Assembly (NCBI RefSeq): GCF_056712565.1
Contig: NZ_CM160072.1
Reading direction: 5' to 3' (one strand)
DNA length: 64,000 nucleotides
Shown one piece after another: positions 1,338-13,367 of the stretch. The position numbers and the translations under genes were made by a program. Under the pieces are notes generated by a model, which was not told where the DNA came from, searched no databases, and saw only the letters and a list, made by a program, of their open reading frames with translations. Within the stretch, counting starts at the first letter, position 1. Each line of letters starts with the position of its first letter.

Positions 1338-2117
1338 TTATCGAGCACTAAAGTGCGGTTGACGCTTCTCAGTAAATGCCTGACTGCCTTCATGAGCATC
1401 TTCAGTCGTGGCGGAAAAAGCGCCAGCCAGTGCTTCAAGCGTCGAGGCCACAGCAATACCTTCTCCGGCATCAATAACCTGCTTGGCGATCTGCACTGCA
1501 ACGGGAGCACGCTGGGCGATACGTTGTGCCAGTTGCAGTCCGGCGTCGTGTAACGCCTCCCTGGCGACAACGCGATTCACCAGCCCGCAGGACAGTGCCC
1601 GCTGTGCATCCAGTGGTTCACCGGTAAATACCAGTTCTTTCACCAGTGAGCGCCCAAGCAGTGCCGTCAGCCGCTGCGTTCCTGACCAGCCAGGCACTGT
1701 CGCCAGCCCGGTTTCTGGTAGTGCCATTTGTGCTTCGGCGCTACAAATACGGATATCGGTGGTAGCAGCCAGTTCCAGACCACCGCCATAAGCCAGGCCG
1801 TGCAACAGGGCGATTACGGGCTGTGGCAGTTGTGCCAGAGCATCAAATGCCTGATGACCGCGGCGGATCCAGTTGCGCCACATATCGAGTGCAGAAAGAG
1901 AGGTCCAGCGATGAATATCCGCGCCGACACAAAACGCTTTTTCACTGGCACTGGTCAGCAGTACTACGCGGATCTCCGAATCAGTTTCCAACGTGTGGCA
2001 ATGCGCCAGCAGTTGTTCGAGCATCTCTGGGGTTAATGCGTTGAGTTTTGCCGGGCGATTAATCACCAAAGTGGCAATGAAACCGTTGCGCTGGAGGTCA
2101 ATGGTGCCGTTATTCAT
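1338..2117 (-). CDS. enoyl-CoA hydratase/isomerase (crotonase superfamily)
   Basis: 259-aa ORF; crotonase-type motifs with both catalytic Glu positions (YGGGLELAATTD and ALPETGL); start overlaps the stop of the upstream CoA-transferase gene by 8 nt. Confidence 0.8.
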   Translation of the reverse strand: MNNGTIDLQRNGFIATLVINRPAKLNALTPEMLEQLLAHCHTLETDSEIRVVLLTSASEKAFCVGADIHRWTSLSALDMWRNWIRRGHQAFDALAQLPQPVIALLHGLAYGGGLELAATTDIRICSAEAQMALPETGLATVPGWSGTQRLTALLGRSLVKELVFTGEPLDAQRALSCGLVNRVVAREALHDAGLQLAQRIAQRAPVAVQIAKQVIDAGEGIAVASTLEALAGAFSATTEDAHEGSQAFTEKRQPHFSAR

Positions 2118-3681
2118 GGTGACGTCCTTGTTGAAAATAGTGGGGATTCATTAGTTTGAGATCGTCTGCCAGACGGAGTGGGGCATTGCTTTGGGCGAGA
2201 ATGTCGCGTTCAGGATCAATACCTGGGGCAATTTCCGTGACCAGTAGTCCGTCTGGGGTTAATTCCAGCACGCAGCGTTCAGTGATGTACTGCACTTGTT
2301 GCCCGAGTCTTATTGCGCGTTTGCCGGAGAACGTCACGTGGGCGACGTCCTGTACCAGTTTTTTGGCTTTGCCTTCTTTAATGATACGCAGCTGACCCTC
2401 TTCCAGTTGCAGTTGGGCACCGGCATTGAAAAAGCCAGAGAAAATAATGCGCTTCGCATGTGAGGTGATATCAATAAATCCACCGCATCCGGCAGTGACA
2501 TGTGGACGAGCGGGGAGATGTGAGACGTTCACTGAGCCATCTGCGCCGATTTGTAAAAACGACATCAGAGTGAGATCAAAGCCACCGCCCTGGAAATAGG
2601 TGAACTGCTGGGGAGAGGGCAAAAATGCTTCTGCATTAGAGGCACAACCGAACTGAAATTCCAGCAGTGGAACTCCGCCAATCGCGCCCTGTTCCAGCAG
2701 CCAGGTGACGTCACCGTGGCGACCTTGTTCCAGTAAAATGCGTGGTACGTTGGCAGAAATACCAAAGCCAATATTTACCGCATCTCCACTTTGTAGTTCT
2801 TGCGCGACTCGCTGGGCAATAACTCGCGCCGGGCCATGTTCCATATAACGAAAGGCTGATAGCGGACGACTGATTTCGCCGGAAATGGCAGGTTCATATT
2901 GCGTTTGTGTCGTTTGTGTTTGTTCCGGCGCAATCACGATGTAATCCACCAGTACACCCGGAATACGCACCTCTTTTGGTTTCAGACTTCCGGCGGCAAC
3001 CTGTCGTTTTACTTGCGCAATTATGATGCCACCATTATTGCGAACGGCAGTAGCCTGTTCCAGTGGCCCCAGATAAGCCCCTTCATGTTCATAAGTCAGG
3101 TTGCCGCGTTCATCGGCAGTGGTAGCGCGAATGATCGCCACCTGCGGCACGATACTGGGGAAAAACAGCCAGTCGTCGTTAGCAAATCGAACACGTTCAA
3201 CCAGAGATTGTTGCGCCGCTTTTTCATTCATTGCACCGCCCTGCAACAGGGGATCCACATAGGTATCCATGCCTGTTTGTGTCAGCACGCCAGGACGATG
3301 AGCCGCCGCTTCCCGGTGCATATCAAATAAGATCCCGGAAGGCAGATTCCAGGCGGGGATCGCGTTGTCATTGATCATTTGCCAGATTAACGGAGGCGCC
3401 ATTGATGATGGACCGGAGGGGTAGGAGCCAGCGATCACTTTTGCCAGTAAGCCCGGTTGCGCCAGATGATCGATGCCTTTTACGCCATACATATCACCAG
3501 CGGCGATAGGGTGGATGGAGGTGATGTTTTGCGGATGTCCGGCACGTTGAAAGCGTTCACCTATTGCTGCCAGCACCGCATCCGGACACCCCATTCCACT
3601 GGAGGAGGAGACGGTGACAACTGCGCCATCAACAATCAAATCTGCAGCTTCCGGTGCAGTGATCGTGCGTACAGAGCACAT
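2110..3681 (-). CDS. family I acyl-CoA:acetate CoA-transferase, fused alpha/beta (YdiF/Pct-like)
   Basis: 523-aa ORF; blocks AAAHRPGVLTQTGMDTYVDP, IRATTADERGNL and RIPGVLVDYIV align with E. coli YdiF as I recall it; E-x-G catalytic motif LLEQGAIGG; AAGGA SD before the ATG. Confidence 0.8.
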   Translation of the reverse strand: MCSVRTITAPEAADLIVDGAVVTVSSSSGMGCPDAVLAAIGERFQRAGHPQNITSIHPIAAGDMYGVKGIDHLAQPGLLAKVIAGSYPSGPSSMAPPLIWQMINDNAIPAWNLPSGILFDMHREAAAHRPGVLTQTGMDTYVDPLLQGGAMNEKAAQQSLVERVRFANDDWLFFPSIVPQVAIIRATTADERGNLTYEHEGAYLGPLEQATAVRNNGGIIIAQVKRQVAAGSLKPKEVRIPGVLVDYIVIAPEQTQTTQTQYEPAISGEISRPLSAFRYMEHGPARVIAQRVAQELQSGDAVNIGFGISANVPRILLEQGRHGDVTWLLEQGAIGGVPLLEFQFGCASNAEAFLPSPQQFTYFQGGGFDLTLMSFLQIGADGSVNVSHLPARPHVTAGCGGFIDITSHAKRIIFSGFFNAGAQLQLEEGQLRIIKEGKAKKLVQDVAHVTFSGKRAIRLGQQVQYITERCVLELTPDGLLVTEIAPGIDPERDILAQSNAPLRLADDLKLMNPHYFQQGRHHE

Positions 3682-3936
3682 AATAATTTCCTTGTTTCGA
3701 TATAAAAATAATTAAAAATATGCATTTAAAACAATATGATAATTTTCATAAATTAATTGGAACGATCTAATTTATGCGTAATTTGTACGATTAGGGTGTA
3801 AAAAACACAACAAGGGAAGTGCGAATCTGTGATCGAAACGACGATCTCCTGCGATCCCTTGCGTTAACGGATCGCATGAGTAAAAGGAGATTATGATAAA
3901 GTAATTGCCTTGATCTTATGGGGGTTTGGAGCAGGC

Positions 3937-4971
3937 ATGGCGAAGTCGGATACAGGAAGAAAGCGGGTAACATTAACCGATGTTGCGCGTGCGGCTGGCG
4001 TTTCGAAATCGACCGTATCGCTGGTTCTCAACGACAGTTCACTTATCAAAAAAGAGACTCAACAAAAAGTCCAGCAAGCCATTGAACAATTAGGCTATGT
4101 CTATAACCGTTTTGCTGCCAATCTGCGTTCGCAAAAATCGCTAACTATCGGCGTAGTCATTGACGATTTGATAAATCCTTTCTTCGCTGAATTTACTATG
4201 GGTCTTGAGATGACGCTGGCGGAGCACGGTTTTATCACCGTGATGTCCAATACCTCCCAGCGTAGTGACCGGCAAAAACAGGTGCTTGATACCTTGCTGG
4301 AACACCACGTCGCGGGCATTGTCCTCTGTCCAGTGAACAGTACCTCAGAAGCCGATTTACAGCGTTATGCCAACAGTTCCACACCCTTATTAATCACGAT
4401 GCGCCCTCTGGATTGGCAACAATTGCCCGTCGATTACGTTGGCGTGGACAGCCACGCAGGTGTACGGGAAGCGACGGAATATCTCATTCAACAAGGGCAC
4501 AGAGATATCGTGTTTATTGGTGGTCTTACGCACCATATGCGTTATCAGGGATACCTTGAGGCGATGAATCACCATGGTTTACAGCCGTGGAGTACTGATG
4601 CTTTTTCGCTGCGTGCTGAACCGACTCAGGCCAACGGCTACCAGTTGATGCAACAGCTGTTGGATATGCCTTCGCCACCCACAGCGGTGATTTGTTATAA
4701 CGATTTAATGGCTTTTGGCGCGGAGTCGGCACTAGGCGAAAGAGGATTATTTGCCGGGGAAGATATTTCGTTGATTGGTAATGATGGCGTGGCGGCTTGT
4801 GCTTACAGTAACCCGCCGTTAACCACAATTGCGGTAGAACCATTGGCTCTGGGGAAACAGGCGGCGCAGCAAATTTTACGGCGTATTGCGCAACCAGACG
4901 CACCGCTCAGCCATTACATCTATCGCCCGACCCTGCAAATTCGCGCTTCCACCGGAAAGCGGGGGCGTTAA
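3937..4971 (+). CDS. LacI/GalR-family transcriptional regulator, divergent from the CoA-transferase operon
   Basis: ORF-track ORF 3910-4971 trimmed to ATG 3937 (GGAG SD 5 nt upstream); N-terminal HTH VTLTDVARAAGVSKSTVSLVLN; periplasmic-binding-like effector domain. Confidence 0.8.
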   Translation: MAKSDTGRKRVTLTDVARAAGVSKSTVSLVLNDSSLIKKETQQKVQQAIEQLGYVYNRFAANLRSQKSLTIGVVIDDLINPFFAEFTMGLEMTLAEHGFITVMSNTSQRSDRQKQVLDTLLEHHVAGIVLCPVNSTSEADLQRYANSSTPLLITMRPLDWQQLPVDYVGVDSHAGVREATEYLIQQGHRDIVFIGGLTHHMRYQGYLEAMNHHGLQPWSTDAFSLRAEPTQANGYQLMQQLLDMPSPPTAVICYNDLMAFGAESALGERGLFAGEDISLIGNDGVAACAYSNPPLTTIAVEPLALGKQAAQQILRRIAQPDAPLSHYIYRPTLQIRASTGKRGR

Positions 4972-5043: not shown

Positions 5044-6459
5044 ATGGCAGGCAATAGACCTTTCAACAAACAACAGACTGATAACCGCGAACGCGATCCA
5101 CAAGTTGCCGGGCTGAAAGTGCCTCCGCACTCGATCGAAGCGGAGCAGTCGGTGTTGGGCGGTTTAATGCTGGATAACGAACGCTGGGATGATGTAGCTG
5201 AGCGTGTGGTGGCAGATGATTTTTACACCCGCCCACACCGTCATATCTTTACTGAAATGGCGCGTTTGCAGGAAAGCGGTAGTCCTATCGATCTGATTAC
5301 CCTTGCGGAATCGCTGGAACGCCAGGGGCAACTCGATAGCGTCGGTGGTTTTGCTTATCTGGCAGAGCTGTCAAAAAATACGCCAAGTGCGGCGAACATC
5401 AGTGCATATGCGGATATCGTGCGCGAACGTGCCGTTGTTCGTGAGATGATCTCCGTTGCTAACGAGATTGCCGAAGCTGGTTTTGATCCACAAGGGCGTA
5501 CCAGTGAAGATCTGCTCGACCTTGCTGAATCCCGCGTCTTTAAAATTGCCGAAAGTCGTGCAAACAAAGACGAAGGGCCGAAGAACATCGCCGATGTGCT
5601 CGACGCAACCGTGGCGCGTATTGAGCAGTTGTTTCAGCAGCCACACGATGGCGTTACCGGGGTAAATACCGGTTATGACGATCTCAACAAAAAAACCGCT
5701 GGCTTGCAGCCGTCGGATTTGATCATCGTTGCCGCGCGTCCGTCGATGGGTAAAACGACATTTGCGATGAACCTCGTCGAAAACGCGGCGATGTTGCAGG
5801 ATAAACCGGTGCTTATCTTTTCGCTGGAGATGCCATCAGAACAGATTATGATGCGTTCTCTGGCGTCGCTGTCGCGCGTTGACCAGACTAAAATCCGTAC
5901 CGGGCAGCTCGATGATGAAGACTGGGCACGCATTTCCGGCACCATGGGTATTTTGCTCGAAAAACGCAATATCTATATCGATGATTCCTCCGGCTTGACG
6001 CCAACGGAAGTGCGTTCCCGCGCACGCCGTATTGCCCGTGAACACGGCGGCATCGGGCTTATCATGATCGACTACCTGCAACTGATGCGCGTACCGGCGC
6101 TTTCCGATAACCGTACGCTGGAAATTGCAGAAATCTCCCGCTCGCTGAAAGCACTGGCGAAAGAACTGAACGTGCCGGTGGTGGCGCTGTCCCAGTTGAA
6201 CCGTTCTCTGGAACAACGTGCCGACAAACGCCCGGTCAACTCCGACCTGCGTGAATCTGGCTCTATCGAGCAGGATGCGGACTTGATCATGTTTATCTAT
6301 CGTGATGAGGTGTATCACGAAAACAGTGATTTAAAAGGCATCGCGGAAATTATTATCGGTAAACAACGTAACGGCCCAATCGGGACGGTACGCCTGACCT
6401 TTAACGGTCAATGGTCGCGCTTCGACAACTATGCGGGGCCGCAGTACGACGACGAATAA
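5044..6459 (+). CDS. dnaB: replicative DNA helicase DnaB
   Basis: 471 aa from ATG 5044 (MAGNRPFNKQQ...); Walker A PSMGKTTFA; ORF-track ORF 5008-6459 has a 12-codon upstream extension that I reject. Confidence 0.95.
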   Translation: MAGNRPFNKQQTDNRERDPQVAGLKVPPHSIEAEQSVLGGLMLDNERWDDVAERVVADDFYTRPHRHIFTEMARLQESGSPIDLITLAESLERQGQLDSVGGFAYLAELSKNTPSAANISAYADIVRERAVVREMISVANEIAEAGFDPQGRTSEDLLDLAESRVFKIAESRANKDEGPKNIADVLDATVARIEQLFQQPHDGVTGVNTGYDDLNKKTAGLQPSDLIIVAARPSMGKTTFAMNLVENAAMLQDKPVLIFSLEMPSEQIMMRSLASLSRVDQTKIRTGQLDDEDWARISGTMGILLEKRNIYIDDSSGLTPTEVRSRARRIAREHGGIGLIMIDYLQLMRVPALSDNRTLEIAEISRSLKALAKELNVPVVALSQLNRSLEQRADKRPVNSDLRESGSIEQDADLIMFIYRDEVYHENSDLKGIAEIIIGKQRNGPIGTVRLTFNGQWSRFDNYAGPQYDDE

Positions 6460-6511
6460 TAATTATTTTATGAATTAGGTAATTAAAGCAAACACTTATC
6501 AAGGAACACTA

Positions 6512-7591
6512 ATGCAAGCGGCAACTGTTGTGATTAACCGCCGCGCTCTGCGACACAACCTGCAACGTCTTCGTGAACTGGCGCCTGCCAGTAAAATGGT
6601 TGCGGTGGTGAAAGCGAACGCTTATGGTCACGGTCTTCTTGAGACCGCGCGAACGCTCCCCGATGCTGACGCCTTTGGCGTAGCCCGTCTCGAAGAAGCT
6701 CTGCGACTGCGTGCGGGGGGAATCACCAAACCTGTACTTTTACTCGAAGGCTTTTTTGATGCCAGAGATCTACCGACGATTTCTGCGCAACATTTTCATA
6801 CCGCCGTGCATAACGAAGAACAGCTGGCTGCGCTGGAAGAGGCTAGCCTGGACGAGCCGGTTACCGTCTGGATGAAACTCGATACCGGTATGCACCGTCT
6901 GGGCGTAAGGCCGGAACAGGCTGAGGCGTTTTATCATCGTCTGACCCAGTGCAAAAACGTTCGTCAGCCGGTGAATATCGTCAGCCATTTTGCGCGCGCG
7001 GATGAACCAAAATGCGGCGCAACCGAGAAGCAACTCGCTATCTTTAATACCTTTTGCGAAGGCAAACCTGGTCAACGTTCCATTGCCGCGTCGGGTGGCA
7101 TTTTACTCTGGCCACAGTCGCATTTTGACTGGGTGCGCCCGGGCATCATTCTTTACGGCGTATCTCCGCTGGAAGATCGCTCCACCGGTGCCGATTTTGG
7201 CTGTCAGCCAGTGATGTCGCTAACCTCCAGCCTGATTGCCGTGCGTGAGCATAAAGCCGGAGAGCCTGTCGGTTATGGTGGAACCTGGGTAAGCGAACGT
7301 GATACTCGTCTTGGCGTAGTCGCGATGGGCTATGGCGATGGTTATCCGCGCGCCGCGCCGTCCGGTACGCCAGTGCTGGTGAACGGTCGCGAAGTGCCGA
7401 TTGTCGGGCGCGTGGCGATGGATATGATCTGCGTAGACTTAGGTCCACAGGCGCAGGATAAAGCCGGGGACCCGGTCATTTTATGGGGCGAAGGTTTGCC
7501 CGTAGAACGTATCGCTGAAATGACGAAAGTAAGTGCTTACGAACTTATCACGCGCCTGACCTCAAGAGTCGCGATGAAATACGTGGATTAA
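6512..7591 (+). CDS. alr: alanine racemase, biosynthetic
   Basis: 359 aa; PLP-lysine motif [10 protein letters not shown]; conserved position after dnaB. Confidence 0.95.
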
Positions 7592-7613
7592 TATTCGTCT
7601 CCAGGGAGGGACA

Positions 7614-8171
7614 ATGTCTTATTCAGAAATCGCCGCGTGTCTGGCATACGCGGTTTCCGTCTGGCTGGCTGCCAGAAACAATGTGCATACATGGTGGATC
7701 GGCATAATTGGCAGCATATTGTACGGCTGGGTTTTTTGGTCTGTGCAACTCTATGCCGACGTTACGCTCCAGTTATTCTTCATCGCGACCAGCATCACTG
7801 GCTGGATCCACTGGCTGAAAGGTCAGGGTGGCGACATCTTGCCGGTGCGCCGAACGCAAGCCAGTCACTTTTTCCTTTTGTTGCTCTGTGCTGTCGTCGT
7901 GGCAGGCGGTTACGGCTTTTTACTCCACACCTTTACCAATGCCTGGGCACCCTGGCTGGATTCGTTGATTTTGACCTTTAGCGTTCTGGCACAATTCATG
8001 TTGATGGGAAGACGTATCGAAAACTGGTTCGTCTGGTTAGCGGTGAATACCCTGGCAGTGCCACTGTATATGACGCGCGGTTTAAACCTGACCGCTGGCT
8101 TATATTTCCTGTTCTGGATTAACGCCTGGCATGGTTTGTATCAATGGCGCAAAGAGTTGCAAACATCATGA
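7614..8171 (+). CDS. PnuC-family nicotinamide riboside transporter homolog (compact, 185 aa)
   Basis: Blocks VQLYADVTLQLFFIATSITGWIHW and RRIENWFVWLAVNTLAVPLY align with E. coli PnuC (IQLYASLLLQVFFFAANIYGWYAW; RKYVENWLLWVIINVISVV) as I recall it; GGGAGGG SD; begins 22 nt after the alr stop. Confidence 0.75.
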   Translation: MSYSEIAACLAYAVSVWLAARNNVHTWWIGIIGSILYGWVFWSVQLYADVTLQLFFIATSITGWIHWLKGQGGDILPVRRTQASHFFLLLLCAVVVAGGYGFLLHTFTNAWAPWLDSLILTFSVLAQFMLMGRRIENWFVWLAVNTLAVPLYMTRGLNLTAGLYFLFWINAWHGLYQWRKELQTS

Positions 8172-9166
8172 AGCCTTTTGCAACGGGCCTGGTGGTTGGT
8201 AAATTCGCGCCTTTGCATTGTGGTCATGAAAAGTTGATCAATACCGCACTGGCGCAATGTGAAGAACTGTTCATCATCAGTTATTCCGTGCCGGAAATGC
8301 CTGACTGTGAACCTGAAAAGCGCCTGACGTGGCTGCAAGTGCGCTTCCCGCAAGCGACGATTTTGGTACTGACGCCAGAGCTTGTTGCGCGTTATAACTT
8401 ACCTGCCATACCGCATAACGATGCCGACATCCACCGTCATTATGTGGCGACGCTGTGCCTGCAGATATTACGCTGTCGTCCACATGCTGTATTTACTGCA
8501 GAAGACTATGGCGATGGCTTTGCTAACGTGCTGGCGCGGCGTTTTGCCCAACCCGTTGAACACGTTCGAATGGCGCGCCCAGTTGGCGATGAAGCGCCTT
8601 CGGGAACGCTTATTCGTTCCGATGTTCACCGCTATCGCTACATGTTGGCGAATGATGTTTATTACAGTTTCGTTCGCCGTATCTGTCTGCTTGGTGGCGA
8701 ATCTACCGGTAAAAGCACGCTTTCAAAAGCGCTGGCGGATGGGCTTGATACGGTGTATGTCGCTGAATTTGGCCGCGACTATTGGGAAGAAAAAAACGGA
8801 ATCTTAACCGCGGATGATTTGTTGCATATCGCCTGCGAACAGGTACGCCGGGAACAACAAGCAGAAGCTAATCACTATCTTATATGTGACACGTCGCCAC
8901 TCACGACCTTGTTCTATGCCCTTGATCAATATGGTCATGCTCCGCAAGAACTTCATCAACTGGCGGAGCGGGAATACTCTCTGGTGGTGCTTTGCGGCGC
9001 AGAATTTCCCTTCGTGCAGGATGGCACCCGGCAAGGAGAGGTATTTCGCGCACGGCAACAGGTGTGGTATGAACAGGAATTATCGCGCAGGAATATTCCT
9101 TATCTTTCTGTTTCGGGTTCGCTGCAAGAGCGACTGGGGCAAATTCTACATCGCCTTCCCGACTGA
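8168..9166 (+). CDS. NadR-like bifunctional NMN adenylyltransferase / ribosylnicotinamide kinase lacking the N-terminal HTH domain
   Basis: ORF-track ORF 8144-9166 trimmed to ATG 8168, which overlaps the upstream TGA (ATGA coupling); nucleotidyltransferase motif GKFAPLHCGH; Walker A GGESTGKST; same domain order as NadR without the DNA-binding domain. Confidence 0.75.
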   Translation: MKPFATGLVVGKFAPLHCGHEKLINTALAQCEELFIISYSVPEMPDCEPEKRLTWLQVRFPQATILVLTPELVARYNLPAIPHNDADIHRHYVATLCLQILRCRPHAVFTAEDYGDGFANVLARRFAQPVEHVRMARPVGDEAPSGTLIRSDVHRYRYMLANDVYYSFVRRICLLGGESTGKSTLSKALADGLDTVYVAEFGRDYWEEKNGILTADDLLHIACEQVRREQQAEANHYLICDTSPLTTLFYALDQYGHAPQELHQLAEREYSLVVLCGAEFPFVQDGTRQGEVFRARQQVWYEQELSRRNIPYLSVSGSLQERLGQILHRLPD

Positions 9167-9247
9167 CTTTGAACATCCACTCGATCTTCGTCTACTTCCG
9201 GTTTATTGTGTTTTAACCACCTGCCCGTAAACCTGGAGAACCATCGC

Positions 9248-10441
9248 GTGTTTCAAAAAGTTGACGCCTACGCTGGCGACCCGATTCTTACGCTTATGGA
9301 GCGTTTTAAAGAAGACCCTCGCAGCGACAAAGTGAATTTAAGTATCGGTCTGTACTACAACGAAGACGGAATTATTCCACAACTGAAAGCCGTAGCGGAT
9401 GCGGAAGCGCGCCTGAATGCGCAGCCTCATGGTGCTTCGCTTTATTTACCGATGGAAGGGCTTAACAGCTATCGCCATGCCATTGCGCCGCTGCTGTTTG
9501 GTGCGGACCATCCGGTACTGCAACAACAGCGCGTAGCAACCATTCAAACCCTTGGCGGCTCAGGGGCATTGAAAGTGGGTGCAGATTTCCTGAAACGCTA
9601 CTTCCCGGAATCAGGCGTCTGGGTCAGCGATCCTACCTGGGAAAACCACGTAGCAATATTCGCCGGGGCTGGATTCGAAGTAAGTACTTACCCCTGGTAT
9701 GACGAAGCGACTAACGGCGTGCGCTTTAATGACCTGTTGGCGACGCTGAAAACATTACCTGCCCGCAGTATTGTGTTGCTGCATCCATGTTGCCACAACC
9801 CAACGGGTGCCGATCTCACTAATGACCAGTGGGATTCCGTGATTGAAATTCTCAAAGCCCGCGAGCTTATTCCATTCCTCGATATTGCCTATCAAGGATT
9901 TGGTGCCGGTATGGAAGAGGATGCCTACGCCATTCGCGCCATTGCCAGCGCTGGATTACCCGCTCTGGTGAGCAATTCGTTCTCGAAAATTTTCTCCCTT
10001 TACGGCGAGCGCGTCGGCGGACTTTCTGTTCTGTGTGAAGATGCCGAAGCCGCAGGCCGCGTACTGGGGCAATTGAAAGCAACCGTTCGCCGCAACTACT
10101 CCAGCCCGCCGAATTTTGGTGCGCAGGTGGTGGCTGCGGTGCTGAATGACGAGGCATTGAAAGCCAGCTGGCTGGCGGAAGTAGAAGAGATGCGTACTCG
10201 CATTCTGGCAATGCGTCAGGAACTGGTGAAGGTATTGAGCACAGAGATGCCAGAGCGCAATTTCGATTATCTGCTTAATCAGCGCGGCATGTTCAGTTAT
10301 ACCGGTTTAAGAACCGCTCAGGTTGACCGACTACGTGAAGAATTTGGTGTCTATCTCATCGCCAGCGGTCGCATGTGTGTCGCCGGGCTTAACGCGCAAA
10401 ATGTGCATCGCGTGGCAAAGGCGTTTGCTGCGGTGATGTGA
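9248..10441 (+). CDS. tyrB: aromatic amino acid aminotransferase TyrB
   Basis: 397 aa from GTG 9248 ([14 protein letters not shown]...), matching the K-12 length; PLP-lysine context [16 protein letters not shown]. Confidence 0.9.
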
Positions 10442-10473: not shown

Positions 10474-10571
10474 CCTGACTCCAGCCATCCCCTACTATTC
10501 TGTCCCTTTTTTCGCCCACTTTTACATCATCTCTTTTCTATAAGTTTTTGAAAATTAGTGTTTTTAACTGT

Positions 10572-10587
10572 TGGTACGGATTGTGCA
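10572..10587 (+). promoter_or_regulatory. candidate sigma-54 (-24/-12) promoter for the 2-oxoglutarate dehydrogenase operon
   Basis: TGGTACGGATTGTGCA: GG and GC separated by 10 nt, two mismatches to TGGCACG-N4-TTGC; 36 nt upstream of the E1 ATG; an NtrC-family activator gene is in the same island. Confidence 0.55.
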
Positions 10588-10622
10588 GTAATGCGGCTGT
10601 CTATGACCATCAGGAGAAAAAC

Positions 10623-13367
10623 ATGGAGAACATGACCTCGCCCGGCACGCTGCTTAGTGGAGATAACGCGACCTGGCTTGAAGAGTACTACCAGACCTGG
10701 TTGCGTACGCCGGAACAACTCCCGGAAGACTGGCGGCGTTTTTTTCTTTCACCTGAACTGACTGTCCAAAGCGTATCCGGTGATAACAACGTCAGCGGTG
10801 CGACGTTAAAAAAACAGGCTGCGGTAATACAACTGATCAATGCCTGGCGCACGCAGGGGCATCTGCGCGCAAAGCTTGATCCACTTGGTTTGAATCCCCC
10901 AGCTGACGTTCCCTCCCTCCAGCCTGGTTTTTGGGGATTAAGCGAAGAAGACTTGTTGCAGGAGTTTAGCGTCACCTTTGGCGCACACACCACGCAAATG
11001 CCACTTAAGCAACTGCTTAACCTGCTGGAGCAAGCCTGGGCCGGTAGCCAGGCTTATGAACTTGCTCATCTGGAAAATCGTGAAGAAATCAACTGGTTGT
11101 TATCACGGATTGAGAGCAGCAATGCGCCACAAGCTGATGCCCAAACCTGCATTGCCCGTTTTGAAAAACTGATGGCGGCAGAGACGTTAGAGCGTTATCT
11201 GCATACCCGTTATGTTGGGCAGAAACGGTTTTCTCTGGAAGGGGGCGAAAGTGCAATCCCGGCGCTCGATACGCTGACAAAACGCCTGCGTGCGCAAGGT
11301 GTGGAGGAAATGGTCATTGGCATGGCGCACCGGGGAAGACTTAATGTTCTGGTTAATCTGTTGAATAAAGACCCGGCACAGCTTTTTGCTGAGTTTGAAG
11401 GCAAGCAGACGATCGGCAGTGGTTCAGGCGATGTGAAATACCACATGGGGTATTCCAGCAATCTGGAAACACCTGCCGGTTCGCTGCATGTGGCGCTGGC
11501 GTATAACCCCTCACATCTGGAGATCGTGAATCCGGTGGTGCTGGGCCAGGTGCGAGCCAGGCAGGAACGCCGTGGTGAGGATGGTCAGGCAAAAGTGGTG
11601 GGCGTACTTATTCATGGGGATTCCGCGTTGGGCGGCCTCGGCGTCAACCAAACCACGTTTAACTTATCGCAGACTCAGGGCTACGGCACTGGCGGTACGC
11701 TACATCTGGTGATTAACAATCAGATTGGCTTCACCACTTCCCGCTTGCAGGATATGCGTTCTTCACGGTACTGCACCGATATTGCCAAAATGGTAGCGGC
11801 CCCAATTATCCACGTTAATGGCGATGACGTTGACGCTGTTTGCCAGGTAATGGAACTGGCGTGCGAATGGCGAGACACCTTCCGGCGCGACATCATCATC
11901 GATATTTGCTGCTTCCGTAAGCACGGACACAACGAAAGCGATGAGCCACGTCTTACCCAGCCACAAATGTATCAGGCAGTGGATGCTCACCCTGGTACGC
12001 TCGCCCGTTATGGTGAATCTCTTGCCCGCCGCGGCCTGTTAACTCAGGCGCAACAAGATGAGATGACGGCACGCTATCGCGACTGGCTGGATAGCTGCCA
12101 GAAACGTGAACCGCAGCCTCTCAAACCTGCAATTCACTCTTTTAGCGCTAACTGGTATGGGTTGACCAACCCTCACTGGAGCGCCCCGGTATCTACGGCA
12201 TTGCCTCGGCAAAAGCTGGCAGCGTATGGTGAAATCATTTCTACACTGCCACCCGATGTGGTCGCACATCCTACCATTAAACGGCAACTGGCGTTACGCC
12301 AGGATATGGCCGCAGGTACTCAGCCAATAGACTGGGGAATGGCTGAAATGCTGGCCTATGCATCGCTTGTGGATGCGGGTGTTGGTGTGCGTCTTTCTGG
12401 TGAAGACTCAGGGCGTGGCACGTTCAGTCATCGCCATGCAGTGGTACATCATCAAACTGAAGCCCGTCGTTATCTGCCGTTACAGCATATCCGCGCTGGT
12501 CAGGCATCTTTCGATGTTTATGATTCGGTGCTTAATGAAGAAGCGCTCTTAGCCTTTGAATATGGCTATTCAACGTCTGCGCCTCAGCAACTGGTTATTT
12601 GGGAAGCGCAGTTTGGTGACTTTGCCAACGGCGCTCAGGTTGCTATTGACCAGTTTATCTCGTCTGGCGAAACCAAGTGGGATCGCTATAGCGGTTTAAC
12701 CATTCTTCTGCCGCATGGCTATGACGGACAAGGGCCGGAGCACTCTTCTGCGCGTCCTGAGCGCTGGCTGCAACTGTGCGCAGAAAACAACATGCAGGTG
12801 GTGATGCCCAGTGAGTCAGCACAAATGTTCCATTTGCTGCGCGGTCAGGCATTACGCCCAATGCGCAAACCGTTAGTGATAATGATGAGTAAGCGTTTAC
12901 TTCGGTTTAAAGGCGCTATGAGCGAGCTTTCTGAATTCACTGATGGCGCTTATAAACCGGTAGTCACCGATCCGCAATTGCATCAGTCCCAGAAAGTTAA
13001 GCGCGTTATTTTGTGTAGCGGCCAGGTCTATTACGACGTACTGGAAGCCCGTAAGCAGCGTGAGTGTGAAGATGAGGTAGCGATTGTTCGCCTGGAGCAA
13101 CTCTACCCGTTCCCGGTCGCAGAACTGAATGATGTTCTGGCGAGTTGGCCGAACTGCTGCGAATGGATTTGGTTGCAGGAAGAGCCAGAAAACCAGGGCG
13201 CGTGGCGGCAGATTCGTCATGAGCTGGCGGCACTGAAAATTAACACTCCTTACTGGCAGTATGCAGGCCGCCCGGCAGTGGCAGCTCCGGCGACAGGGTA
13301 TGGGCGTGTACATAAACAACAAATCGACGAATTTCTTGCTGCTGCGTTTGCAGATATTCAGCCATGA
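10623..13367 (+). CDS. 2-oxoglutarate dehydrogenase E1 component paralog (SucA-like)
   Basis: ORF-track ORF 10548-13367 (TTG) trimmed to ATG 10623 with AGGAGA SD; ThDP region HGDSALGGLGVNQTTFNLSQTQGYGTGGTLHLVINNQIGFTTS parallels SucA. Confidence 0.9.
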   Translation: MENMTSPGTLLSGDNATWLEEYYQTWLRTPEQLPEDWRRFFLSPELTVQSVSGDNNVSGATLKKQAAVIQLINAWRTQGHLRAKLDPLGLNPPADVPSLQPGFWGLSEEDLLQEFSVTFGAHTTQMPLKQLLNLLEQAWAGSQAYELAHLENREEINWLLSRIESSNAPQADAQTCIARFEKLMAAETLERYLHTRYVGQKRFSLEGGESAIPALDTLTKRLRAQGVEEMVIGMAHRGRLNVLVNLLNKDPAQLFAEFEGKQTIGSGSGDVKYHMGYSSNLETPAGSLHVALAYNPSHLEIVNPVVLGQVRARQERRGEDGQAKVVGVLIHGDSALGGLGVNQTTFNLSQTQGYGTGGTLHLVINNQIGFTTSRLQDMRSSRYCTDIAKMVAAPIIHVNGDDVDAVCQVMELACEWRDTFRRDIIIDICCFRKHGHNESDEPRLTQPQMYQAVDAHPGTLARYGESLARRGLLTQAQQDEMTARYRDWLDSCQKREPQPLKPAIHSFSANWYGLTNPHWSAPVSTALPRQKLAAYGEIISTLPPDVVAHPTIKRQLALRQDMAAGTQPIDWGMAEMLAYASLVDAGVGVRLSGEDSGRGTFSHRHAVVHHQTEARRYLPLQHIRAGQASFDVYDSVLNEEALLAFEYGYSTSAPQQLVIWEAQFGDFANGAQVAIDQFISSGETKWDRYSGLTILLPHGYDGQGPEHSSARPERWLQLCAENNMQVVMPSESAQMFHLLRGQALRPMRKPLVIMMSKRLLRFKGAMSELSEFTDGAYKPVVTDPQLHQSQKVKRVILCSGQVYYDVLEARKQRECEDEVAIVRLEQLYPFPVAELNDVLASWPNCCEWIWLQEEPENQGAWRQIRHELAALKINTPYWQYAGRPAVAAPATGYGRVHKQQIDEFLAAAFADIQP

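Follow-up and report, generated by a model that had tools for sequence, protein, structure and literature searches.

A translationally coupled PnuC-family transporter gene and NadR-like gene between alr and tyrB of Escherichia coli: a probable uptake-and-trap module for nicotinamide riboside

The locus and its control signals

The window analysed here is a stretch of 64,000 nucleotides of Escherichia coli DNA (NCBI RefSeq assembly GCF_056712565.1, contig NZ_CM160072.1). Between the alanine racemase gene alr and tyrB, it carries two overlapping genes that encode a PnuC-family transporter of 185 amino acids (aa) and a NadR-like protein of 332 aa. An earlier description based on the DNA letters alone (hereafter the sequence-only reading) had drawn attention to this pair, and its positions, the 22-nt gap behind alr, the ATGA overlap, the protein lengths and the motifs could all be confirmed. 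The locus, in which all features lie on the plus strand, is composed of the following elements:

6512..7591, plus strand: alr (alanine racemase), open reading frame (ORF) with a TAA stop at 7589-7591; annotated in RefSeq for UTI89, protein 100% identical by tblastn
7592..7613, plus strand: 22-nt spacer between alr and the pnuC-like gene, containing a GGGAGGG Shine-Dalgarno sequence and only weak hairpins without a T-tract
7614..8171, plus strand: PnuC-family facilitator, 185 aa, ATG at 7614 and TGA at 8169-8171; compact form with a seven-helix core and without the extra N-terminal helix
8168..8171, plus strand: 4-nt ATGA stop/start overlap (translational coupling)
8168..9166, plus strand: NadR-like ORF, 332 aa, ATG at 8168
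9167..9247, plus strand: 81-nt spacer before tyrB, in which homology to K-12 restarts at 9170 by local alignment
9248..10441, plus strand: tyrB, the downstream flank, with a GTG start

An alternative, longer in-frame start of the NadR-like ORF lies at 8144; homologues and RefSeq favour the start at 8168. Positions 7400-9400 are 100% identical to the genomes of UTI89, S88, APEC O1, IHE3034 and ATCC 11775, and the window is of the E. coli phylogroup B2 type. In the RefSeq annotation of UTI89 the two genes are named pnuC (WP_000122235) and "AAA family ATPase" (WP_001331852).

The interval between alr and tyrB was scanned for control signals, and neither a convincing terminator nor a sigma-70-like promoter was found. 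The pair abuts alr without a terminator, as had been stated, and without a promoter of its own. No Rfam element was detected at positions 6400-9400, no riboswitch or other RNA element precedes the pair in 11 diverse loci, and no NadR operator (TGTTTA-N6-TAAACA, at most 3 mismatches) occurs between positions 3710 and 10264. Because the spacer behind alr measures only 22 nt, because terminator, promoter, riboswitch and NadR box were not found, and because the enzyme has no helix-turn-helix (HTH) domain, the pair is probably co-transcribed with alr and probably independent of the regulon through which NadR responds to nicotinamide adenine dinucleotide (NAD). Co-transcription is further supported by the conservation of a short alr spacer (11-24 nt) in six other loci of the Enterobacteriaceae.

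The PnuC-like transporter

Profile searches place both proteins in the families to which the sequence-only reading had assigned them. The PnuC-like protein matches the Pfam family NMN_transporter (PF04973) with an E-value of 8.1e-49 over model positions 1-175 of 175, and with 75.8 bits it passes the cut-off of 42.45 of TIGR01528, the NCBIfam equivalog of PnuC. It further matches the structure 4QTN in the PDB (4e-8) and shares 23% identity with E. coli PnuC.

In Pnu transporters the ligand is bound by a WxxW(x)3D/N motif in transmembrane helix 6 (TM6), and gate tryptophans stand at the ends of TM3 and TM7 (PMC5749112). The Pnu motif was located in the protein as WFVWLAVN (8025..8048, plus strand, residues 138-145), in the WxxW(x)3N form. 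Within a clade of 71 members it is unchanged in 70, and it is common to the PnuC proteins of E. coli and N. mucosa. W67 and W178, the two gate tryptophans, are likewise conserved across the clade and found in both of these reference proteins. Taken at the level of profiles and motifs, the 185-aa protein belongs to the Pnu/PnuC family, with transport of nicotinamide riboside as its predicted function.

The NadR-like enzyme

The second protein consists of two domains, with the following segments (all on the plus strand):

8168..8662, plus strand, residues 1 to ~165: N-terminal nucleotidyltransferase domain, similar to nicotinamide mononucleotide (NMN) adenylyltransferases (NMNAT), from TIGR01526, PHROG and motifs
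8198-8227, plus strand, residues 11-20: GKFAPLHCGH, N-terminal domain
8600-8617, plus strand: SGTLIR (S145-G-T147-L-I-R150; ISSTxxR-type), N-terminal domain
8663..9166, plus strand, residues ~166-332: C-terminal P-loop domain of the ribosylnicotinamide-kinase type, from AAA_28 and alignments to 8X7F, 1LW7 and 9X6F
8693-8719, plus strand, residues 176-184: Walker A motif GGESTGKST, kinase domain
Residues 200-203, plus strand: EFGR, kinase domain
8888-8893, plus strand: Walker B motif D241-T242, kinase domain
9020-9031, plus strand: lid motif DGTR (D285-G-T-R288), kinase domain

The protein matches the NadR model TIGR01526 with an E-value of 1.1e-41 over positions 3-320 of 325, the Pfam family AAA_28 with 7.6e-32, and a PHROG family of phage NMNATs with 1.1e-46, as strongly as it matches the bacterial NadR model. 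Its only relatives in the PDB are the NadR-type structures 9X6F, 8X7F, 1LW7 and 6GYE (2e-25 to 2e-7). With E. coli NadR it shares 29% identity, and since this alignment begins only at NadR residue 67, the protein lacks the HTH domain, in line with the earlier claim that it has no DNA-binding domain. Its N-terminus lies 6 residues ahead of the nucleotidyltransferase motif.

To assess the catalytic residues, 80 relatives from GTDB genomes were aligned with the NadR proteins of E. coli, H. influenzae and L. lactis and with 9X6F. In the N-terminal domain, G-K-F-x-P-L-H-x-G-H, S145, T147 and R150 are invariant in the 80 relatives and common to four solved NadRs, and the clade-invariant R52 and W55 are present in the solved NadRs as well. 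In the kinase domain, Walker A from G176 to K182, E200-G-R203, D241-T242 and D285-G-x-R288 are unchanged in the 80 relatives and common to canonical NadRs. The residues needed for nucleotidyltransferase and kinase activity are thus present on alignment.

Genomic context of the relatives

Immediately upstream of the nadR-like gene, ~70 of the 80 loci, which span several phyla, have a pnuC-like gene. In Andreprevotia (L015-L017) and Chitinimonas (L031, L033), which belong to the same pair-only subclade as E. coli and are its closest relatives outside the enterics, the two follow nrtR and an ADP-ribosylglycohydrolase-like gene, and the cluster is divergent from pncB and an unknown gene; pncB is also found nearby in two Massilia loci (L072 and L080). 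Clusters of nrtR with pnuC-nadR are known from Hahella and Streptococcus and were used by Rodionov et al. to define NrtR regulons (PMC2330246). The E. coli pair itself has no linkage to nrtR, pncB or nadE. The nrtR/pncB linkage of its relatives is the best independent evidence we have, and it points to a role of the clade in NAD metabolism.

In ~30 of the 80 relatives, the more distant ones, the nadR-like gene ends a larger operon with overlapping ORFs. The operon begins with a MoxR-like AAA_3 ATPase, a ~333-aa unknown protein and a ~600-aa protein with HExxH and VWA, followed by an optional radical SAM/SPASM enzyme, a 194-aa helical protein with the invariant C-terminus ...ADKWTRE, an AMP-binding (ANL) ligase, an optional PnuC and the NadR-like enzyme. 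Examples are L066:601-7041, L052:795-6990 and L087-L092 (e.g. L088:3640-12597), and the operon is widespread among soil and freshwater Proteobacteria, Verrucomicrobia, Geobacteraceae and others. Three of its components belong to no Pfam or NCBIfam family. For the operon proteins termed A and C, no sequence match was found in Pfam, NCBIfam, PHROG or the PDB. Their structural models reached a pLDDT (predicted local distance difference test score) of 77 and 87, and fold searches with these recovered nothing beyond a VWA domain in A, the large protein, and uncharacterised proteins in the case of C. The family of the tailed protein C comprises >2300 clusters, all named "hypothetical", and its best matches include no enteric members.

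This larger operon, too, points to NAD and ADP-ribose biology, to judge from its neighbours, because it is flanked by nrtR, pncB and nadE in Paucimonas (L088) and adjoins nrtR and two ADP-ribosylglycohydrolases in a further locus (L090). A PADLOC search for anti-phage defence systems gave nothing for the pair; its sole result concerned the optional operon gene, which showed a generic radical-SAM similarity (pVip, 2e-16). In a separate observation, a tandem array of 13 tRNA genes was seen immediately downstream of the nadR-like gene in a metagenome-assembled genome of the Oxalobacteraceae (L044:7220-8538).

Distribution and evolution

The pair is present in 867 of 5426 complete E. coli genomes, at a single chromosomal site, in alleles of 100%, 98.7%, 97.2% and ~91.5% identity. 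The sequence-only reading had also noted that E. coli already possesses pnuC and nadR elsewhere; these canonical genes are found in 5424 of the 5426 genomes, and the alr-linked pair is therefore always a second copy.

The same reading had described the pair as inserted between alr and tyrB, which we consider doubtful. The gene order dnaB-alr-pnuC-nadR-like-tyrB also occurs in Enterobacter hormaechei, E. cloacae, five Kosakonia species and two Superficieibacter species, with an alr gap of 11-24 nt, the 4-nt overlap and 70-100 nt before tyrB, and the junction 'ccagggaggga' is common to the window and Superficieibacter. The ~91.5% allele is that of E. coli strain CI5 (L085:6015-7573), which belongs to a non-B2 lineage, has the same synteny and lacks both of the neighbouring B2 islands; the genes that flank its cassette resemble those of K-12 more than those of B2. 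A recent insertion or mobile origin was considered and rejected, as the GC content of the cassette (51%) resembles that of its flanks and the synteny is kept in other genera. Genuine plasmids or phages with the pair were not found, and the E. coli 'plasmid' matches look like chromosome fragments. Given the shared synteny and junctions, the CI5 allele, the flank-like GC content and the lack of a plasmid or phage carrier, an insertion in B2 is a poor description. The order alr-pnuC-nadR-like-tyrB is better read as an old enterobacterial arrangement that has been patchily retained, and not as a B2-specific gain.

Phage homologues of the NadR-like protein are at most 32% identical to it. As a side observation, 704 phage genomes encode a NadR-like kinase/adenylyltransferase, among them Vibrio, Salmonella, Klebsiella and Escherichia phages and Caulobacter jumbo phages.

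In K-12, window positions 7595-9169 are replaced by an unrelated segment of 174 bp that contains a repetitive extragenic palindromic (REP) element (L002:4864-5036). Local alignment of this segment revealed neither residual similarity to the cassette nor a deletion scar, and loss or replacement, as the direction of the K-12 event, is suggested by synteny only.

Both cassette genes are under purifying selection. The ratio of nonsynonymous to synonymous substitution rates (dN/dS) is 0.04 and 0.15 for the two genes between the B2 and CI5 alleles and 0.22 and 0.11 between sequence types ST95 and ST131, giving a range of 0.04-0.22. Between B2 and CI5, dS amounts to 0.27-0.32 in the cassette as compared with 0.08-0.11 in dnaB, alr and tyrB. 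This ~3x higher value could reflect an old polymorphism, introgression or weak codon bias.

Proposed function and alternative explanations

We propose, with a probability of roughly 0.6, that the pair is an uptake-and-trap salvage module that leads from nicotinamide riboside to NAD, is expressed together with alr and stands outside NadR control. More specifically, the 185-aa PnuC-family protein would let the riboside, which carries no charged phosphate, diffuse across the inner membrane. The C-terminal P-loop kinase domain of the coupled 332-aa enzyme would then phosphorylate the riboside and trap the mononucleotide, which the N-terminal HxGH nucleotidyltransferase domain would adenylylate to the dinucleotide, NAD. 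Metabolic trapping by a linked kinase is an established mechanism of Pnu transporters (PMC5749112). Observed directly, and forming the basis of the proposal, are the homology and conserved motifs, the purifying selection on both genes, their coupling, the conserved synteny and the NAD-regulon linkage of relatives; the substrate, both enzymatic activities and co-transcription with alr are what we infer from them.

Several findings weigh against this proposal. The score of the enzyme against TIGR01526, 143.1 bits, does not reach the trusted cut-off of 341.15, which explains why the NCBI name is just "AAA family ATPase"; nor does its score against NF005988 (91 bits, cut-off 201). Among the Pfam profiles that the sequence-only reading had suggested for a check, NMN_transporter and AAA_28 match strongly and CTP_transf_like only marginally (0.073). 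Judged by these scores, the enzyme is a NadR-superfamily protein and not a curated NadR equivalog, and its clade lies far from canonical NadR. The clade also departs from four solved NadRs at positions that are invariant in the latter: the W of 'PNGW' is replaced by H/Q89, the W of 'YW' by R157, a kinase-domain Y by L/M218, a D by Q284 and an H by Q225. Conversely, R90, H154 and W206 are newly invariant. In the transporter, the first half-site reads H25-T26-W27 throughout the clade, as opposed to S-N-Y(-x-x-G) in the PnuC proteins of E. coli and N. mucosa. Regarding genomic context, the members of the enzyme clade that branch basally when a neighbour-joining tree is rooted on E. coli NadR lie in the large operon, the function of which is uncharacterised, and six loci of the Oxalobacteraceae carry that operon and the NadR-like gene without pnuC. 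Finally, NadRh of M. tuberculosis, an HTH-less homologue, lacks both activities in vitro (PMC3944813). Because of this inactive protein, specificity for nicotinamide riboside is predicted and not a given. NadRh has no PnuC partner; as a precedent, it nonetheless warns against transferring function by homology alone.

Overall, the residue pattern of the clade appears to be one of conserved chemistry and a remodelled substrate side. By analogy with NMNAT structures, the replaced residues may line the substrate pocket and contact the pyridine ring. C240 and C276 are further clade-invariant residues. Variation within E. coli falls into the same region, as the window allele (ST95 type) encodes 332 aa and most E. 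coli alleles encode 334 aa. The difference is a 6-bp 'AD' repeat (HND--ADIHRH versus HNDADADIHRH; window ~8420-8430, residues 85-88), in the loop that stands in for the canonical 'PNGW' segment.

Together with the separateness of the clade from all assayed NadRs and the operon ended by its basal members, this remodelling leaves room, tentatively, for the view that the pair stands for a substrate class of its own, or for the salvage arm, stripped down, of a separate NAD-linked MoxR/VWA/ligase system. If the salvage-arm view is true, the pair would feed a dedicated process or deal with some pyridine riboside that is not nicotinamide riboside, and enterics would keep it as a scavenger. A closely related and likewise unlikely possibility, and the main rival to our proposal, is that the mechanism is as proposed and the riboside is a different one, either nicotinic acid riboside, which would be converted to nicotinic acid mononucleotide and nicotinic acid adenine dinucleotide with NadE finishing, or another nucleoside-like vitamin, so that the pair complements the canonical route. 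Such a substrate would agree with the divergence of the putative substrate-side positions from canonical NadR and PnuC at kept catalytic ones, with the invariant basic residues R90, R157 and H154, which replace canonical tryptophans and could suit an anionic group, and with the existence of Pnu transporters for thiamine and riboflavin. Purifying selection beside intact canonical genes is also harder to explain for a strictly redundant route. However, nothing identifies an alternative ligand, the N in WxxWxxxN is of the PnuC type whereas the PnuT type has a D, and the nrtR/pncB linkage keeps any alternative inside pyridine nucleotide metabolism.

It is improbable that the kinase half alone is at work, with a regulatory or inactive N-terminal domain, in which case NMN would be trapped, deamidated by PncC and passed on to NadD and NadE. 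The kinase domain is much closer to known NadRs than the N-terminal domain is, as seen in the gap between the AAA_28 and CTP_transf_like matches and in the alignment of 8X7F mainly over residues 144-315, and this would fit such a division of labour, but invariant HxGH and S-x-T-x-x-R motifs in the 80 relatives, together with many clade-invariant N-terminal residues, are unexpected for a dead domain. Even less probable is a role that belongs to the MoxR/VWA/ligase operon, in which the NadR-like enzyme would modify a protein or other product made by that system, with the enteric pair as a remnant unrelated to vitamin salvage. This notion draws on the operon-ending relatives, their basal place in the tree and the six loci without pnuC. 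Against it, E. coli, Enterobacter and Pseudomonas have the pair only, the best matches of the C-protein family are not enteric, the pair-only lineages are always partnered by PnuC and have nrtR and pncB neighbours, and the large operon itself stands beside NAD genes in L088 and L090. It is very improbable that the pair is a decaying relic without function, kept only because of its position between two genes that are essential or housekeeping, since loss from ~84% of complete E. coli genomes and some truncated protein clusters (214-289 aa) are set against intact ORFs in alleles up to 9% apart in DNA with dN/dS of 0.04-0.15, and against a start/stop overlap and motifs that are conserved across genera.

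Comparison with known systems

We compared the pair with known transporter and enzyme systems. The sequence-only reading had called the arrangement Haemophilus-style, and this description holds for the function but not for close orthology. Haemophilus influenzae PnuC and NadR (1LW7) belong to the same two families and follow the same proposed logic of facilitated diffusion, phosphorylation and adenylylation, and H. influenzae NadR is likewise a two-domain enzyme with HxGH, ISSTxxR-like, Walker A/B and lid motifs. In contrast, the similarity to H. influenzae NadR is weak (phmmer 1e-13, 54 bits), and with 29% identity to E. coli NadR, the low TIGR01526 score and the replaced invariant residues, among them the canonical 'YPNGW' and 'YW' tryptophans, the enzyme is not a close NadR orthologue. 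In addition, the E. coli genes overlap, and E. coli has a full de novo pathway and a canonical NadR besides.

With enterobacterial NadR (b4390) and the PnuC of nadA-pnuC (b0751), the pair shares homologous enzyme domains and a homologous transporter within the same genomes. It differs from them in its low identity (29%/23%), in the missing HTH and hence missing repression, in the lack of an upstream NadR box, and in the linkage and coupling of its genes. HTH-less NadR proteins linked to pnuC are also represented by L. lactis NadR (6GYE), Streptococcus nadR-pnuC-nrtR and Hahella nrtR<>pnuC-nadR, and nrtR recurs among the relatives of the E. coli pair. Unlike these, the E. coli enzyme falls into a separate clade (L. 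lactis NadR matches at only 2e-7), and the enteric pair is appended to alr with no adjoining NAD regulator.

PnuT and its thiamine kinase offer a parallel in another pathway, with a compact Pnu transporter that lacks the N-terminal helix and is co-localised with a substrate-trapping kinase. There, the motif is WxxWxxxD instead of WxxWxxxN, and the partner enzyme comes from a different family. M. tuberculosis NadRh (Rv0212c) is, like the protein studied here, a distant NadR homologue without HTH. In contrast to it, the E. coli protein retains every catalytic motif and, within its subclade, has PnuC as a constant partner, whereas NadRh has no PnuC and is inactive in vitro (PMC3944813).

Neighbouring regions

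Of the sequence before the tyrB GTG, K-12 and the genomes with the cassette have no more than the final ~77 nt in common. Should the 174 bp of K-12 hold its tyrB promoter or TyrR sites, strains with the cassette must transcribe tyrB in another manner, either through transcripts that run on from alr or from a start within the nadR-like gene. No TyrR box with at most 3 mismatches was found near K-12 tyrB.

Upstream of dnaB, the window encodes an acyl-CoA:acetate/3-ketoacid CoA-transferase (2110-3681, minus strand) and a LacI-family regulator (3910-4971), and this region (2110-4971) occupies the place of qorA in K-12 and CI5. It forms part of the strain-variable 3-ketoacid metabolism block c5020-c5025, which a published table does not mark in all four of the uropathogenic strains compared (PMC2831201). 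Directly after tyrB lies a second 2-oxoglutarate dehydrogenase E1-like gene (10548-13367), which in UTI89 is followed by odhB-, lpdA-, sucC- and sucD-like genes and a DASS transporter; this 2-oxoglutarate block is not present in K-12 or CI5. The 2-oxoglutarate metabolism block has been described as c5030-c5041 and as uropathogen-associated (PMC2831201).

Significance

Linkage of an HTH-less NadR to pnuC is a known arrangement, and the pair is already annotated in RefSeq, where it constitutes an uncharacterised second copy. Our literature search turned up no study that deals with the pair in E. coli of the uropathogenic or B2 kind, and a search by locus tag gave only a synteny table. As a RefSeq name, "AAA family ATPase" says too little about the NadR-like gene, and the departures of its clade from canonical NadR make the enzyme a cheap and informative target for assays.

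The pair marks major extraintestinal pathogenic lineages. If active, it would allow B2 extraintestinal pathogenic E. coli (ST95, ST73, ST131) as well as Enterobacter and Kosakonia to make NAD from a riboside supplied by the host or the microbiota, by a route free of repression by NAD. Natural NAD auxotrophy occurs among the carriers, as UTI89 is nicotinamide-dependent through nadB and NC101 has a nadA mutation, and because of this, salvage capacity can set growth in host niches. NadD and NadE are pursued as antibacterial targets (PMC3944813), and a NadR-type route would, by inference, bypass both of them.

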